A stretch of 64,000 bases of DNA from an uncultured Bacilli bacterium (lineage in GTDB: Bacteria; Bacillota_I; Bacilli_A; RFN20; CAG-449). Every line of letters begins with the position of its first letter. The stretch's first letter is position 1. Shown here piece after piece: positions 52,544 through 62,547 of the stretch. The stretch spans positions 2,477 through 66,476 of the forward strand of contig CANQTY010000001.1 in NCBI GenBank assembly GCA_947626895.1. The letters run 5' to 3'. The translations under genes and the position numbers were made by a program. The notes under the pieces are model-generated. The model saw nothing but the letters and a program-made list of their open reading frames with translations. It was not told where the DNA came from and did no database searches.

Positions 52544-53899
52544 CTACTTTTTACTATTTAATAAGGCAAATTGATAAAAAGGAAGATTATGTATATCTTG
52601 TTCTTCATAGACGATTTTTGAAGATAACTTTAATAAATAAACATCTTTTTTAGATTCATCATTTTTTAATTTATTTAAAGATGGAGATTTTAAATTATTT
52701 CCAGATTTGACCTCTATCGCGGTAATTTTTCCATTTTCTTCTTTAAGAAAATCAATATCCATATCCATGCGATTATAATAATATAATTCATGTTCATATG
52801 GATTTAAGGATAAAATATTAGCAACTAGATTTTCATAAATACCCCCAATATCTAAATCATCGTTTCCATTTAAAACAAGATATCTTTTTTCTTCATGAAA
52901 CATCGACATTAAAATTCCTGTATCAAATAAGAATAATTTAAATGATTCTTCTTTTTTATAGCTTTCTAAAGGAGATTGAATCGTTTTTGTATTGTAACAA
53001 AAAGTAACTAGACCTGCTTCATATAAATAATCTAATGCATCTTTAAATTTTCTAACTCTTCCCCCTTCTTCAACACGATGATACATAAACTTTTTGTTTT
53101 GTTGTTTTAGTTGAAAAGGAATTGAAGCAAAGCATTTTTCTATCTTTAAACTTTCATTATGATTTTCTGCATATTTTCTTATATCTTGAATATATCCTCT
53201 TTTTAAATCCTGCTGAATTTCATATACTTTATGAAAATCATTGGAATTTAAAAATGTAAGAATACATGAGGGTAATCCACCTATAACGATATATTTTCTA
53301 AGCATACCTAATAATGTTTCATGCGTAGAAAGAGAAATATCTTTAGAATTGCTATTCATTCTAATTTGTTCAATAAAGTCTTCACTATAATTAAATGCCC
53401 ATAAAAATTCCTCAAAATCAAAAGGTTTCATTTCTAAATGACTTACATACCCTACAGGATATGAACCATGAAATGAACGCGCTAAAGCTACACCAAGTAA
53501 AGATCCAGAAGCAATCACATGATATAACTTATTTTCTAAAGAAAAGGATTTTAAAGAAATTAAAGCATTTTCACAAGATTGAATTTCATCTAGAAAGATA
53601 AAATATGGATTATTTTCATCATCTTTAAAATCAATATTCATAAAGCGAATATTCATTTGTATTTTATTCATAATCGCTTTAGGAGATAAATCATTTTCAA
53701 AAAATTTTTTTGCTTCAGGAAATAATTCAAAATTGATAGAAATAATCTTATTTGAAGGATAATTTTCTTTAGCAAATTCTTCAATGCTATATGTTTTTCC
53801 TACTTGACGCGCTCCAACGACAAGAAGACATTTTTTCGTTTTTGATGCTTTCCATTCAACTAATGATTTGGTGATTTTTCTTTTCATAATTTTCTCCAC
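52544..53899 (-). CDS. AAA-superfamily ATPase of the COG1373 type (with DUF4143-like C-terminal domain)
   Basis: Walker A VVGARQVGKT; Walker B FIFLDEIQ; 451 aa architecture typical of COG1373. Confidence 0.6.
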   Translation of the reverse strand: MEKIMKRKITKSLVEWKASKTKKCLLVVGARQVGKTYSIEEFAKENYPSNKIISINFELFPEAKKFFENDLSPKAIMNKIQMNIRFMNIDFKDDENNPYFIFLDEIQSCENALISLKSFSLENKLYHVIASGSLLGVALARSFHGSYPVGYVSHLEMKPFDFEEFLWAFNYSEDFIEQIRMNSNSKDISLSTHETLLGMLRKYIVIGGLPSCILTFLNSNDFHKVYEIQQDLKRGYIQDIRKYAENHNESLKIEKCFASIPFQLKQQNKKFMYHRVEEGGRVRKFKDALDYLYEAGLVTFCYNTKTIQSPLESYKKEESFKLFLFDTGILMSMFHEEKRYLVLNGNDDLDIGGIYENLVANILSLNPYEHELYYYNRMDMDIDFLKEENGKITAIEVKSGNNLKSPSLNKLKNDESKKDVYLLKLSSKIVYEEQDIHNLPFYQFALLNSKK

Positions 53900-54288: not shown

Positions 54289-55566
54289 ATGAACCACTTT
54301 TATGATGAATTTAAAAAACCTACATGTTCAGAACTACTAGACTTTCTTGAAGAAGAATTAAAGGACATTGATTCTACAAAAAAATTGATGATAAGTTTTG
54401 AAATCAGCGCTGTTGCAACTAGAATCGGTGAAAAAGTCAAAGACACATTCACGATTGATTCAAGTGTTTTTGAAATCACACCACTTTTAATCGATTTAGT
54501 AAGACCTCCCTTCGGGGAAATTGGAGAAAAAACTCTGCATAATATTCTCGCGGGTCATGATGATTGTCTTCATATCGTAAACGATGTAAAAGCTCTTAAT
54601 GTTGCGCAAAGCTTTAAGCAGAATCTTACTTCCGCGAGATTGATGATTGACCTTACTGAACAAGGAGTAGAAAAAAAGAAAATGGAAAAAGTTTTAGATG
54701 CCGTCTTAAAAAATCGTGAAATTTATTTTGATGAATACAAAGAAGATATTGCTCTAAATGAGGAATTTAAGTATATTGTCAAGGACTTTAAAAATTTAAA
54801 TGGCGAAGATTATTACAATCATAATCCAAAATATATTGAAGGCTATATTCTTTCTATATCCACGAAAGTGATTGATCTATTTATTGACTATATCAATTTA
54901 ATGAAGAAAAACAAAATGTTTAAATTTGAAATAGAAAAATCCGAATTTTATAGCTATTTTAAAACAAGTATTGATTCTTTTTTAGAAATGGATATTCCAT
55001 CTCAAGCAACAGCATTATCTAATGAGCTAATAAGAATCTTTATAGATGAAATCAAAAAAGATTCGAATCATTTCATACTTAGTGAAAATAGTATATTCTT
55101 TTATTTATTTAATGCATTTCAAAAGATTAAAAATGATGTATTAAACAAAGATTTATCTTATAAAATTAATAAAGGGGCTCAAGAATTAATTATAAAGCAG
55201 ATTTTTGCCAATTATTATCAAAATCCCTTCTGCATGAATGAGGTATTCTTTAAACATTTTTATGGCTCCATCATGGACATAAAAGGTTTACCAAAAAATA
55301 TCTATCAAGATATGAATATGTTTAAAGAGGTCCTAGATATTGAAGATGAAGATCAACTTGCAAAAATAAAAGAAAAAATGGAAGATTTTCTCAAAGAATG
55401 CAGAAAGAATATAACCCAAAAAGATTTACCTAGTTCTTTAAGAGATAGTTATCGCACTATCTATAAGCAATATTTAAAAAGCATTGCATTTTATATTGCA
55501 TGTATGACCGATGAGATGGCTTATAAAGAAAGTGTACTTTTTGAAAAAAATGATGAAAAAGATTAG
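54289..55566 (+). CDS. hypothetical cytoplasmic protein (425 aa), no recognisable family
   Basis: good RBS (AAAGGAGAAAAAATATG); first about 400 nt noticeably more GC-rich than surroundings; upstream region shares a conserved element with the 16190-16549 regulator gene. Confidence 0.5.
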   Translation: MNHFYDEFKKPTCSELLDFLEEELKDIDSTKKLMISFEISAVATRIGEKVKDTFTIDSSVFEITPLLIDLVRPPFGEIGEKTLHNILAGHDDCLHIVNDVKALNVAQSFKQNLTSARLMIDLTEQGVEKKKMEKVLDAVLKNREIYFDEYKEDIALNEEFKYIVKDFKNLNGEDYYNHNPKYIEGYILSISTKVIDLFIDYINLMKKNKMFKFEIEKSEFYSYFKTSIDSFLEMDIPSQATALSNELIRIFIDEIKKDSNHFILSENSIFFYLFNAFQKIKNDVLNKDLSYKINKGAQELIIKQIFANYYQNPFCMNEVFFKHFYGSIMDIKGLPKNIYQDMNMFKEVLDIEDEDQLAKIKEKMEDFLKECRKNITQKDLPSSLRDSYRTIYKQYLKSIAFYIACMTDEMAYKESVLFEKNDEKD

Positions 55567-57187: not shown

Positions 57188-58024
57188 TTAATCTTCTGCA
57201 AGAGAACTTTCTTTAATTAATAATTCTTCTGTCGCTGAAACAGAATTGATAACTAATTTAATAAATTTTTCTAATTTAGAATTTGCTCCATAATCCGCTA
57301 AACAATAATAGTTAATACGTTCATCGGTATAAAGTTGCTTTGCTTTTTCTTCGCTACCTTTCGGATAGACCGCGATGGATCTACCTCCTTTTTCATGTAC
57401 GATTGCCATACAAGGAACATCGGTTAATCCATCTCCTAAATAGACGATATTTCTAAAAGGTATTCTTTTTGTTTCAACACGAAGATTCACCGAATCATCA
57501 TTGGTATCTAATGTACCTTTAGAAATTCGATAAAGAAATTGCGTTTTCGCAGTGTAATTCACTGCAATTTTAGGCCAAATGGCAATTCCATTTTCATCAT
57601 ATAAAAACTCACAACCATAGATACTTTTAAATTCTTTGGCAATCGGAGTACCTTCCATGATTTCTGTTGTTCCAGAAGATAAAATATAATGTTCTATTCG
57701 AACTCCTTTTTCTTCCCCATATTGGTTAATTCTTTTAAACCAGGTTGTTACACCATCATAAAATTTGATATCTTTTCCTAAACTATTGAGCCATTCTCTA
57801 GTTAAAGGAATTCCTTTTTCATGGCACTTCATAATCATCATATACATATAAGATAAGATTTTTTCCATGCCAAGCTCTTTAGAAAGTACTGTTGTAGAAT
57901 CCCAAAATTCACTCGGAGTCATCCCCAAAGCAGGAATAAAAGAAAAATTTTGCATGTCATCTCGACATAATGTTTTATCAAAATCATATACTAAAGCTAA
58001 AATTGGCTTTCCCACATTCATCAC
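57188..58024 (-). CDS. HAD-superfamily hydrolase
   Basis: DFDKTL (DxDxT motif I); later GDG..D motif. Confidence 0.6.
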   Translation of the reverse strand: MMNVGKPILALVYDFDKTLCRDDMQNFSFIPALGMTPSEFWDSTTVLSKELGMEKILSYMYMMIMKCHEKGIPLTREWLNSLGKDIKFYDGVTTWFKRINQYGEEKGVRIEHYILSSGTTEIMEGTPIAKEFKSIYGCEFLYDENGIAIWPKIAVNYTAKTQFLYRISKGTLDTNDDSVNLRVETKRIPFRNIVYLGDGLTDVPCMAIVHEKGGRSIAVYPKGSEEKAKQLYTDERINYYCLADYGANSKLEKFIKLVINSVSATEELLIKESSLAED

Positions 58025-59913: not shown

Positions 59914-59996
59914 AATCTTTCCTATAAAGATTTTAACGCATTTTTTAAATAAGATAAATAAGAAATCCTTTATTACATAAAATTAAGCTTATAAGC

Positions 59997-60473
59997 TTAA
60001 TATTTTGCTAACTTTGAAAGAATTAATTCTATATTTGGCTGAGTAGGTATAATTGTAATTTTCAGTTTAATAAGTTCTAAAATTCTTTTTGCTTTCTTTC
60101 CTATTTCTTCCATATCCCTTTCATCTGTAACCATAATGTGTTCATTAAGCCAGCAATATTCACTTTCTATAAAATTTTTAGTAATAGGAAATATTTCTTG
60201 AATTAAAAAGGCTCTTTTAACACCATGAACAAGTTTTGCAATATATAGACCATCATTATGTTTTCCTTGTTCTATTCTTTTTTTCATGACCTTTTCATAT
60301 TTATCCACATTACTAGATAAAGGAATCATCCAATATATTCCATTTTCTTCTTTATAACAATAATAATGAGGTTTTGTTCCATGTTGATTTCTTTTTAAAT
60401 ATGGATCATCCATCAAATCAAAAAATTCATCTTTTATAATATATACTCCATTGATTTTTACTTTCTCTATCAT
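59997..60473 (-). CDS. type III toxin-antitoxin toxin, ToxN/AbiQ-family endoribonuclease (locus 1)
   Basis: about 158 aa; start ATG 60471-60473 with AGGAGA RBS 6 nt upstream; motifs GIYWMIPLSS and KPHYY resemble ToxN/AbiQ (Y.APLTSPK, KRPY); preceded by repeat RNA + terminator. Confidence 0.6.
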   Translation of the reverse strand: MIEKVKINGVYIIKDEFFDLMDDPYLKRNQHGTKPHYYCYKEENGIYWMIPLSSNVDKYEKVMKKRIEQGKHNDGLYIAKLVHGVKRAFLIQEIFPITKNFIESEYCWLNEHIMVTDERDMEEIGKKAKRILELIKLKITIIPTQPNIELILSKLAKY

Positions 60474-60496
60474 CAAAATTCTCCTTTTAAACAAAA

Positions 60497-60629
60497 GTCC
60501 CCCGTATATACTTTAACGAAGGACATATAACTTTCGAGCCAGCCACTTAATGGTTCGCCTGCTGGCCAGCGAAATACTTAACATCCTAGCCATTTGATGG
60601 TTCGCATGCTAGTCAGCGAAAAACTTTCT
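60497..60629 (-). ncRNA. type III antitoxin RNA (ToxI-like), two 47-nt direct repeats plus terminator (locus 1)
   Basis: AGCCAYTTRATGGTTCGCMTGCTRGYCAGCGAAA repeated with 47-nt period (60541, 60588); promoter TTGACT(60664-60659)-17-TAGGAT(60641-60636) on minus strand; terminator 60497-60524 with GU-containing stem + TTTTGTT. Confidence 0.6.
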
Positions 60630-60740
60630 ATACATATCCTAACAAATCAATTTAGTTAAGTCAATATGCAGTTCATTATTTTTTTGTGCATTTAGTATGA
60701 AAATCAATCACATGCTATAGAAAAAAATAATATTCGAAGG

Positions 60741-61220
60741 TTATTGACGTACATTTAACTTTTCTAATATTGCTATCACATCTATTTGAGTAGGCATATA
60801 TCGAACACCATCTTTTAATAACTCCATAATAACCCTAGCCTTTTGTTCGATTTGCTCAACATCTATATCGTTAGTTAATTCTACAAGTTTCCCTTTAAAG
60901 GTATAAGGGCGATAAATGTATTGCTTAGTAATCGGAAACATATCTTGAATCAAAAAGGCACTTTCCTCGTTATCTTTTATCATTGCAATATGAAGAATAT
61001 CACATGGTTTTCCTTCTTCCTCTCTTTTTTGAATAATCCTTCGGTATTTTTCTACACGACTAGATAAAGGAATCATCCAATATATTCCATCTTCTTGATC
61101 CTGTAAGCAATAATAATGTGGCCTTTTACAATGCTTATTACTTTTTAAATATGGATCATTCATCAATTCGAAAAATTCATCTTTAATAAAATACATTCCT
61201 CCTTTTTTTAATTGTCTCAA
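60741..61220 (-). CDS. type III TA toxin, ToxN/AbiQ-family paralogue (locus 2)
   Basis: about 50% identical to the locus-1 toxin (FIKDEFFELMNDPYL..KRPHYY..GIYWMIPLSS); start either TTG 61220 or ATG 61196; GGAGGA RBS nearby. Confidence 0.55.
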   Translation of the reverse strand: MRQLKKGGMYFIKDEFFELMNDPYLKSNKHCKRPHYYCLQDQEDGIYWMIPLSSRVEKYRRIIQKREEEGKPCDILHIAMIKDNEESAFLIQDMFPITKQYIYRPYTFKGKLVELTNDIDVEQIEQKARVIMELLKDGVRYMPTQIDVIAILEKLNVRQ

Positions 61221-61250
61221 TTTTGTCTCATTTCTCCTTTTATGATAAAA

Positions 61251-61417
61251 CTCCCCGCAAATTCACTTTGCAGGGAGTTTCGTCTAGCAATTTATATTCC
61301 GCATGCTAGTAAGCGGAACTTTCGAGCCAGCCACTTAATGGTTCGCCTGCTGGGCAGCGAAATACTTAGCATCCCAGCCATTTGATTGTACGCGTGCTGG
61401 TCAGCGAAAAACTTTCT
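61251..61417 (-). ncRNA. type III antitoxin RNA, about 2.5 x 47-nt repeats plus terminator (locus 2)
   Basis: half repeat 61296-61321, full repeats from 61329 and 61376 nearly identical to locus 1; promoter TTGACA(61452-61447)-17-TAGTAT(61429-61424); terminator hairpin CTCCCTGCAAA-loop-TTTGCGGGGAG + TTTTAT (61251-61277). Confidence 0.6.
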
Positions 61418-61554
61418 ATACTTATACTAGCAAATCGCTTCAAGTATGTCAACAATAATTTATTTTTTTTATAAGGCAAAATTATACACCAATTTATTTA
61501 TCTTAATTAAAATTTAAACTTCAATAATTTAGGTCTTCAAAAATAATCGATTTT

Positions 61555-62547
61555 TTAAATTTTTCCTTGCTCTTTATATTGTTTAATTAAATTTTCTAAT
61601 TTAGAGACAAGTAAAGGTAGTTCATCTAATGAAGTTAATTTACCTCCTGAAGCAAGTTCATGACCTCCACCGTTAAATTCACTAGCGATTCCATTGATAG
61701 GAATTTCTTTACTTCGAATTGATAATCTCCATTCATTCTTTTCTTTATCTTCTGTAATGGACATCCATACATCTACATCAGATAGATTAGACATTAAAGA
61801 AAGATTTTCTTTTCCTCTTCCAGGAGTGATATTTAATCTTTTTACATCTTCATCTTTTAAGACGTAATAAGCTACCCCATTACCAGTAAAGACAATATTA
61901 TTGATTACATGTTTTGTTACTAAGATATCTTCATGCGTTTTTTCATACATCTTTAAATAGACATCTTTAGAAATATTAATTCCTGTTTTCATTAATTCAC
62001 TAGCAATGATAAATGTATCACTAGTCACAGTATTAAATAAGAAACGACCTGAATCTCCCGCAACACCTGAAAATAGATACATTGCCGCGGTCTTCGAAAG
62101 AGGATATTTTTTCTTTTTTAAAGAGATAAAATCATATATTAATTCAGCACAAGAAGAAAGTTCATCATTAACAATATTGATTTTTCCATAAGGTTCAACA
62201 TTTGGATGATGATCAAATTTAATGATGGTTTGAGCATTTAAAAAGCGTTTATCATCGACTCTTTTTGTATCTCCAGTATCTACGACTATGGCTAAAAAAT
62301 CTTTAGGGAAATCTTCATCACTTATTTTTTCAATATGAGGATATAAACGTGGAGTAAAGGTAGGATGATCTTCTCCACAGAGTAAGATCTTTTTTGTAGG
62401 AAAACTATTTTTTAACCACGTAGCTAAACCAAACTGACATCCTAAAGCATCATAATCAGGGATTTCATGACGAAATACAACAATTGTATCATGCTTTAAT
62501 ATTTCTTTTAATACGGCTTTATAAGCCTTTTTATTTTCTTTAATCAT
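61555..62547 (-). CDS. nrnA: DHH-family phosphoesterase NrnA (nanoRNase/pAp phosphatase)
   Basis: DHH/DHHA1 architecture; C-terminal FNGGGHELASGG motif. Confidence 0.8.
   Translation of the reverse strand: MIKENKKAYKAVLKEILKHDTIVVFRHEIPDYDALGCQFGLATWLKNSFPTKKILLCGEDHPTFTPRLYPHIEKISDEDFPKDFLAIVVDTGDTKRVDDKRFLNAQTIIKFDHHPNVEPYGKINIVNDELSSCAELIYDFISLKKKKYPLSKTAAMYLFSGVAGDSGRFLFNTVTSDTFIIASELMKTGINISKDVYLKMYEKTHEDILVTKHVINNIVFTGNGVAYYVLKDEDVKRLNITPGRGKENLSLMSNLSDVDVWMSITEDKEKNEWRLSIRSKEIPINGIASEFNGGGHELASGGKLTSLDELPLLVSKLENLIKQYKEQGKI

Follow-up and report, generated by a model that had tools for sequence, protein, structure and literature searches.

The DNA analysed here is a 64,000 nucleotide (nt) stretch of a low-GC contig (about 25-35%) from an uncultured Bacilli bacterium (assembly GCA_947626895.1, contig CANQTY010000001.1), referred to below as the window. 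On its minus strand, from 61452 to 59997, lie two toxin genes, cptN-1 and cptN-2, whose predicted products are called N1 and N2, and a short array of repeats stands before each gene. Read on that strand, each locus has the same order of parts: a sigma-70-like promoter, an RNA-repeat array, an intrinsic terminator, a Shine-Dalgarno sequence and a toxin gene of 158-159 amino acids (Table 1). An earlier note on this DNA had described a tandem type III toxin-antitoxin layout here, and every element that it listed was recovered at the same position. The promoter-repeats-terminator-toxin order is also that of the CptIN system of Eubacterium rectale (PDB 4RMO; Rao et al. 2015, PMC4627078). Based on the sequence analyses described below, we consider it highly probable that the two loci are complete, co-oriented, head-to-tail CptIN modules. 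The 1.7 kb arrangement was found 100% identical in two independent metagenome assemblies or contigs, and locus 1 and locus 2 share approximately 72% DNA identity, which argues against an assembly artefact or an artefactual duplication.

Table 1. Predicted features of the two cptIN loci and their flanks (positions of the window).
Feature	Position	Strand	Remarks
Promoter P1: TTGACA, 17 nt spacer, TAGTAT, TG-extended	61424..61452	-	10/12 matches, the region's best
CptI unit 1a, 47 nt, AAGUUUUUCGCUGACCAGCACGCGUACAAUCAAAUGGCUGGGAUGCU	61368..61414	-	S1 with one U-U mismatch, S2 intact
CptI unit 1b, 46 nt, AAGUAUUUCGCUGCCCAGCAGGCGAACCAUUAAGUGGCUGGCUCGA	61322..61367	-	both 5 bp stems intact
CptI unit 1c, 42 nt, diverged, AAGUUCCGCUUACUAGCAUGCGGAAUAUAAAUUGCUAGACGA	61280..61321	-	pseudoknot complete
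Intrinsic terminator T1, between array 1 and toxin 1	61243..61281	-	15 bp stem, then U-rich tract
Shine-Dalgarno of toxin 1, AAGGAG	61234..61239	-	13 nt before TTG at 61220
cptN-1 (N1), 159 aa, probable TTG start	60741..61220	-	NF047359 162.1 bits; PDB 4RMO E 3e-53
Promoter P2: TTGACT, 17 nt spacer, TAGGAT, TG-extended	60636..60664	-	9/12 matches; colinear with P1
CptI unit 2a, 47 nt, AAGUUUUUCGCUGACUAGCAUGCGAACCAUCAAAUGGCUAGGAUGUU	60580..60626	-	S2 CUAGC/GCUAG
CptI unit 2b, 46 nt, AAGUAUUUCGCUGGCCAGCAGGCGAACCAUUAAGUGGCUGGCUCGA	60534..60579	-	aligned to CptI columns
Partial unit, 9 nt, AAGUUAUAU, then terminator T2 and UUUUGUUU	60489..60533	-	9 bp stem
Shine-Dalgarno of toxin 2, AAGGAG	60481..60486	-	7 nt before ATG at 60473
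cptN-2 (N2), 158 aa, ATG start	59997..60473	-	NF047359 133.5 bits; PDB 4RMO E 8e-44
Inverted-repeat arm, 19 nt, nrnA side	61494..61512	.	18/19 complementary
Inverted-repeat arm, 19 nt, membrane-protein side	59943..59961	.	single pair within the window

The identity of the toxins was established with protein profiles. Both proteins matched, end to end, NF047359, the NCBIfam curated equivalog 'type III toxin-antitoxin system CptIN family toxin' (cut-off 90 bits), and both gave full-length matches to E. rectale CptN in PDB 4RMO, to which N1 is 54% and N2 48% identical. Their YWMIPLSS and (R/K)PHYY motifs are present in both, as had been pointed out before. The earlier note had called the proteins ToxN/AbiQ-like and had named PF13958 as the profile to try; this was not borne out, as no Pfam family, ToxN_toxin PF13958 included, matched N1 or N2 at E values up to 1. 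Its second suggestion, a search with CptN and TenpN profiles, favours the CptIN family, since the TenpIN profile NF047358 (cut-off 90 bits) gave 18.6 bits for N2 and no match for N1. The note had also preferred a CptIN-like system over canonical ToxI, and this holds, given the NF047359 and 4RMO matches and the CptI pseudoknot described below. Its proposal of a possible new subfamily does not, because both toxins pass the curated CptIN equivalog and are thus ordinary members. We therefore regard the pair as further members of the known CptIN family with diverged CptI, and not as a new subfamily. PADLOC matched neither toxin. N1 and N2 also matched the phage-protein family phrog_33519, to which no function is assigned.

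CptN has Ser51, Ser52 and Tyr104 in its active site, and Asp81 and Ser85 serve the scissile adenine (PMC4627078; residue numbers throughout are those of E. rectale CptN, mapped via the 4RMO alignment). All five are retained in N1. N2 retains the Ser-Ser pair and Tyr104 and carries D81H and S85R, at two columns that vary in distant family members. In an alignment of 18 diverse CptN sequences, all 15 invariant columns, including the active-site Ser-Ser pair, are kept in both N1 and N2.

A repeat search of the window found a 31 nt core five times, with a spacing of 44-47 nt inside each array. Locus 1 has three units (47, 46 and 42 nt), and locus 2 has two (47 and 46 nt) plus 9 nt of a further one, or about 2.2 copies. 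A degenerate 21 nt core pattern matched five times in the 64 kb, where 0.01 matches are expected; neither array passed the thresholds of Tandem Repeats Finder. The earlier note had given 2 or 2.5 repeats of 47 nt. The repeats are there; the copy number needs correction to 3 and about 2.2, and the units are 46-47 nt long, with unit 1c at 42 nt. Length and copy number both lie inside the range published for cptIN loci in PMC3401426 (repeats of 40-48 nt, 1.9-3.4 copies).

Although the units are only 57-72% identical to canonical 45 nt CptI units, all five align column for column with the crystallised CptI, whose E. rectale sequence was taken from a primer in PMC4627078 (AAGUUUACCACUGACCGAUAUGUGGUAUAUAAAUGGUCGGGUUGA). 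The crystal topology was then imposed on them, with stem S1 at columns 8-12/23-27 and stem S2 at columns 16-20/38-42. This 4RMO-type pseudoknot is paired in 97.5% of cells, compared with 87.8% in shuffled sequences, and 0 of 500 shuffles reached the observed value; when the partners were slid by 1-3 columns, pairing fell to 23-44%. Both sides are altered, in a compensatory manner, in six of the ten pseudoknot pairs. Stem S1 reads UUCGC/GCGAA in the window and ACCAC/GUGGU in canonical CptI, while S2 reads CCAGC/GCUGG or CUAGC/GCUAG instead of CCGAU/GUCGG. The S2 of unit 2a (CUAGC/GCUAG) is itself a compensatory change relative to unit 1a. A29 and U30, either of which abolishes CptI antitoxicity when mutated (PMC4627078), are kept in 5/5 units. 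The window units therefore have the H-type pseudoknot columns of E. rectale CptI, its A-rich L2 loop with A29/U30 and its AAG 5' end; they differ in length (46-47 nt against 45 nt), in an L2 loop that is 1 nt longer and in both stems, which have been rewritten by compensatory changes. Since the pseudoknot is kept through compensatory pairs and A29/U30 are conserved, the evidence from sequence argues that the repeats are CptI homologues of a diverged sequence type.

These results bear directly on whether the repeats act as RNA at all. They could instead act at the DNA level, for instance as operator sites or in recombination, or could have arisen by chance, and the lack of an Rfam family match might be taken to favour this. 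No Rfam family reached its gathering score anywhere in the window, and at E values up to 10 only chance matches appeared, e.g. mir-3012 on the T1 hairpin. However, Rfam has no CptI family, which accounts for the empty searches and makes them uninformative either way. Compensatory changes that keep two crossing helices in the columns of crystallised CptI are not what DNA-level elements would lead one to expect, and neither is the position of the units between promoter and terminator on the strand of the toxin gene, nor the fivefold occurrence of a pattern expected 0.01 times. We consider this explanation very improbable.

Unit 1c stands somewhat apart from the other four. Its stems are S1 UUCCGC/GCGGAA and S2 CUAGC/GCUAG, and its 5' tail is 3 nt shorter. 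It is a mosaic in which S1 and L2 (GCGGAAUAUAAAU) look canonical and S2 is of the window type, and it is 56-68% identical to every other unit, roughly equidistant from all of them. Based on this pattern, we read unit 1c as a less-derived or vestigial unit. Further examples of the window-type RNA were sought with a degenerate DNA pattern, which gave at least 120 single matches in JGI metagenomes and six in IMG/VR, all apparently due to chance; none of the matches listed adjoined a CptN gene, and there was no second example of the type among them. A distant CptN locus (L224, 100-290; toxin 30-32% identical to N1/N2) has units of approximately 50 nt, and the 5' part of its unit (AAUGUUUUUCGCU, S1 UUCGC/GCGAA) is closer to the window type than to canonical CptI.

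Both promoters that the earlier note had read, with their 17 nt spacers, are present as claimed, and they stand at the same distance from their arrays, with exactly 9 nt separating the -10 element from unit 1a or 2a. That note had likewise placed a rho-independent terminator hairpin between the repeats and the toxin, and folding analysis supports T1 and T2, although a simple terminator scan called neither. The T1 stem has a folding energy of -24.7 kcal/mol (z -7.9). T2 includes two G-U pairs in its stem and folds at about -14 kcal/mol. Folding of the region 3' of the N1 stop codon revealed no hairpin or terminator, so read-through transcripts from P1 would also contain array 2. A GGAGG-type ribosome-binding site had been proposed; the actual sequence is AAGGAG at both loci. 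The N1 start codon is probably the TTG at 61220, and non-ATG starts (TTG, GTG) occur in related cptIN loci too. A four-codon mini-ORF, ATG AGA CAA AAT TGA, lies at 61231-61217, and its TGA overlaps the N1 TTG. The segment 61217-61239 resembles an 11 nt duplication (ATGAGACAAAA / TTGAGACAATT) that has shifted an older ATG out of frame.

Several observations weigh against the reading of both loci as complete CptIN modules. Nine promoter-like sites were found in this AT-rich region where 10.3 are expected, i.e. no excess over chance, so that the support for P1 and P2 is positional. The T2 hairpin is weak (z -1.8) and weaker than T1, and the distance of 13 nt between the Shine-Dalgarno sequence and the TTG of N1 is long. 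Canonical CptI is cut at GA|AAG (PMC4627078), and the a-to-b junctions of the window are CU|AAG and UU|AAG; the b units end in GA|AAG, as the canonical ones do. Finally, N2 carries R30K, R53N and I106W in addition to the changes at its two scissile-adenine residues. We also considered that R53N inactivates N2 and dropped the idea, given that this column takes R, N, K or Q among family members; columns 53, 81 and 85 are all variable in other CptN proteins.

To place the pair in its family, 80 genome loci (L001-L080) were collected whose CptN is 58-64% identical to N1. A canonical 45 nt unit in 2.0-3.2 copies (Tandem Repeats Finder) was present in 70/70 of those with enough upstream sequence and a detectable repeat. 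No second CptN lay in the fetched flanks of any of 96 other cptIN loci (80 from genomes, six from metagenomes and ten on viral contigs), with at least 1.5 kb available on both sides for 46 of the 80 genome loci. The window differs from these loci in its tandem modules, and locus 1 has in addition a third, mosaic unit. No publication on tandem cptIN pairs came up in a literature search; Blower et al. 2012 (PMC3401426) describe hosts with more than one cptIN copy and do not state whether any of the copies adjoin. Four features of the pair deserve notice: the compensated, diverged CptI, the tandem arrangement with one RNA type, the mosaic unit 1c and the isolated N2 lineage.

The other type III families share the logic of the system and differ in its parts. 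ToxIN/AbiQ (36 nt ToxI; PF13958, RF02519) likewise pairs an RNA-repeat antitoxin with an endoribonuclease toxin that processes it, and a terminator sets the proportion of the two; ToxN and CptN have a common protein fold class (PMC4627078). Its repeat length is different, and it forms a 3:3 hexamer where CptIN forms a 2:2 tetramer. The ToxI RNA model RF02519 scored 18 bits (gathering score 50), at a site outside the window repeats. TenpIN (NF047358) has the same locus logic, and its similarity to the window toxins is a weak N-terminal one to N2.

The survey also yielded some observations on canonical loci. Their first unit, identical to the E. rectale unit and counted 47 times, differs from the second by compensatory pairs, with S1 changing from A-U to G-C and S2 from G-C to A-U (e.g. 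at L001, 3001-3462 and the 300 nt upstream of it). Genomes of Lachnospiraceae, Holdemanella and Solobacterium share a near-invariant canonical CptI, a pattern suggestive of recent horizontal spread. One locus (L090, 3700-4080) seemingly has a single CptI unit before its terminator, below the published minimum of 1.9 copies. A recurrent mis-annotation affects many database CptN entries of 198 amino acids (e.g. P0002, P0078, P0127, P0129): gene calling ran on through the CptI repeats and the terminator and gave these open reading frames some 40 additional N-terminal residues, with the peptide MWYINGRVES.. occurring twice. There is an annotation gap for CptIN in general: Pfam, PADLOC and Rfam miss its parts, and only NCBIfam finds the toxin.

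With the two loci assigned to CptIN, we were curious about the relationship between them. N1 and N2 share 48-49% of their amino acids. By segment, the identity of locus 1 to locus 2 is 72% from -35 to -10, 87% in unit a (6/47 positions differ), 98% in unit b (45/46 identical) and 63% in the coding sequence at the nucleotide level (48% at the amino-acid level). A baseline of 14 loci was used to judge the high identity of the arrays. Canonical-clade toxins that are 52-56% identical to one another still carry CptI that is 78-93% identical, so one RNA type for diverged toxins is normal in CptIN, and the N1/N2 point (about 49% toxin and 93-98% RNA identity) lies just slightly above this trend. We therefore dropped an initial argument, namely that the array identity is a strong outlier proving gene conversion, since the canonical-clade baseline is nearly as high. 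In general, the evolution of CptI is far slower than that of CptN. The larger anomaly is N1, a toxin that groups with the canonical ones and whose CptI is only about 70% canonical.

The two toxins also stand differently towards the rest of the family. N1 shares 64% of its residues with canonical toxins, and a neighbour-joining tree without support values places it in their midst. Outside its own species, where a 98% identical match exists, N2 has nothing above 46% identity over its full length in a HMMER search of 1.84 billion cluster representatives. N1 has the canonical consensus residue and N2 differs at 25 sites; the reverse pattern is seen at nine. At only six sites do the two agree with each other and differ from canonical CptN, and at least two of these are ancestral states. 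By these patterns, N2 is an isolated, fast-changing lineage. Descent of N1 and N2 as sister paralogs was considered and is unsupported, the same tree separating them and the sites that could speak for it numbering only those six.

Possible signs of partial exchange between the loci remain in their 5' parts. At residues identical in N1 and N2, the same codon is used in 36 of 43 cases over codons 1-80, where 26.7 are expected from codon usage, compared with 15 of 29 over codons 81-159, where 16.6 are expected and there is no excess. A variant strain that is 99.5% identical (L084 and L086, compared with window 60260-60566) has a G>C change at 60566 which makes its unit 2b equal to unit 1b (46/46). 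Over the 1,151 nt compared in this strain, from the middle of N1 to just past N2, all six differences fall in the 5' part of locus 2, and a wider 3.2 kb comparison added 12 differences, all further downstream. Three of four coding changes are non-synonymous in N2: I2V, P35S, which lies in the near-invariant RPHYY motif, and H72Y. One difference is in the T2 U-tract, and none is in the covered part of N1. The idea of gene conversion draws on the codon bias in codons 1-80, on the variant unit 2b that equals 1b, and on N1 as a canonical-clade toxin with non-canonical RNA next to a unit 1c whose S1 and L2 look canonical. Based on these observations, the sequences suggest a partial homogenisation of the 5' part of the two loci.

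The variation in locus 2 can also be seen as decay or repurposing. In that case, N2 would be a non-working toxin or one of altered specificity, and the locus would persist mainly as a second source of CptI for N1. N2 is changed at columns where nearly every other CptN has the same residue (R30K, C71N, D81H, S85R, G136K), it departs from the consensus far more often than N1 does (25 sites against 9), and it lacks a relative above 46% identity outside its own species; the variant-strain differences cluster in the 5' part of its locus and are non-synonymous in three of four coding cases, P35S included, and T2 is weaker than T1. However, the N2 open reading frame is intact, with a well-spaced Shine-Dalgarno sequence and ATG and with its own promoter, array and terminator. 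N2 keeps all 15 family-invariant columns, scores 133.5 bits against a cut-off of 90, and shares the variability of columns 81 and 85 with distant members that have their own arrays; moreover, the polymorphism counts are very small. On balance, we find decay or repurposing of locus 2 quite unlikely.

What the shared RNA type would mean for function depends on whether each toxin recognizes both arrays. Near-identical arrays behind toxins that are 48% identical suggest that each array would neutralise both N1 and N2, and as judged from the RNA sequences the likelihood that either array can neutralise either toxin is perhaps a little short of even. Extending this, we tentatively put forward that N1 and N2 may belong to a single two-toxin system with one shared type of RNA antitoxin, in which either array neutralises both toxins and CptI might bridge N1 and N2 into mixed complexes. 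Against cross-protection it must be said that the case for it comes from RNA identity, and that CptIN systems whose toxins are 35-44% identical show no cross-neutralisation (PMC4627078). The two loci could instead be independent and mutually insulated, each toxin answering only to its own array, as with all type III pairs examined to date. None of the six non-cognate CptI/CptN combinations tried in that study showed cross-inhibition, and N1 and N2 differ, according to its list of RNA-contact residues, at contacts to the RNA 3' end or in the 5'-tail pocket (position I73, I in N1 and G in N2; D81, D and H; S85, S and R; I106, F and W; F139, Y and I). The a units also differ at 6/47 positions. 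The b units, however, differ at only 1/46, and at none in the variant strain, and near-identical RNAs would be hard for the toxins to tell apart. Furthermore, the non-cognate toxins tested were 35-44% identical to each other, and loci that distant carry quite different repeats in our survey. Mutual insulation is thus an explanation that we hold to be unlikely.

A mechanism for each module can be proposed by homology to E. rectale CptIN (PDB 4RMO; PMC4627078) and from the cptIN family paper (PMC3401426). The promoters look constitutive and would place the transcription start 1-3 nt ahead of the first repeat. Most transcripts would stop at the terminator, leaving RNA in excess over toxin. CptN is predicted to cut the repeat transcript at unit junctions into 46-47 nt pseudoknots with a 2',3'-cyclic phosphate, and two CptN and two CptI would close into an inactive heterotetramer ring. 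If transcription stopped or the locus were lost, the labile RNA would decay, and free CptN would cleave cellular or phage RNA and bring about growth arrest.

The earlier note had placed the loci between a membrane-protein gene and nrnA as an accessory insertion. The sequences of the closest relatives, GCA_947629415.1 and a Logan contig, whose NrnA is 80% identical, are syntenic with the window upstream of nrnA; the synteny stops immediately beyond nrnA, which ends at 61555 in the window. There, the relatives (L217, L220) have a gene for 121 amino acids, a guanylate-kinase-like gene and an HI0933-like gene, with no cptIN, and these genes are absent from the whole window. With conserved synteny on one side and different genes on the other, the cptIN pair lies at a break in gene order. 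Both loci together are bracketed by a 19 nt inverted repeat made of A and T only; of 500 composition-preserving block shuffles, one contained any such repeat and none had it flanking the pair, and there is no other close copy of its sequence within the window. The flanking repeat may mark the boundary of a cassette and hints, as far as sequence goes, at a mobile one. The insertion is hence favoured by the break, by the absence of the pair from that site in the closest relatives and by the inverted repeat, and is not fully established, as a clean empty site (a single TTATTTATCTTAATTAAAA copy) was not found.

The support for a role of the pair in phage defence is contextual: candidate defence genes lie nearby. 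PADLOC pointed to candidate PDC-S34, a HAD-like protein of 278 amino acids (57188-58024, 371 bits), and to candidate PDC-S01, an AAA_14 + DUF4143 ATPase of 451 amino acids (52544-53899, 426 bits). These genes are 2-7 kb from the cptIN pair, with housekeeping genes, including IspD and a xanthine/uracil permease, in between. A 425 amino acid open reading frame at 54289-55566 gave a weak dGTPase match. The neighbourhood may be rich in defence genes, although the two housekeeping genes named intervene. Elsewhere, CptN homologues with CptI-like repeats occur on ten viral contigs (L225-L234, IMG/VR), and others (L221, L222) adjoin AbiEi-like and YoeB toxin genes; this company fits carriage on mobile or defence-island DNA. 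For CptIN, toxicity with rescue and plasmid stabilisation have been reported, and no member is known to act by abortive infection (PMC3401426, PMC4627078); phage tests in E. coli were negative. Candidate roles for the pair would be phage defence or selfish stabilisation of a variable region.

If the pair does work as one two-toxin system, a single trigger, the loss of CptI, would release two ribonucleases. Because the residues reading the scissile base are D81/S85 in N1 and H/R in N2, the two enzymes may have different targets. Strong constraint on CptI throughout the family would then maintain the similarity of the shared RNA, with gene conversion of the 5' part of the loci contributing. All non-cognate type III pairs tested so far have been strictly insulated (PMC4627078), and a locus of about 1.5 kb, which can be cloned, would offer a small, tractable setting in which to follow the evolution of RNA-protein specificity in type III systems. 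The window CptI would also serve as a natural test of CptI structure, in that compensatory changes have rewritten both of its stems and left A29/U30 and the AAG end as they were.

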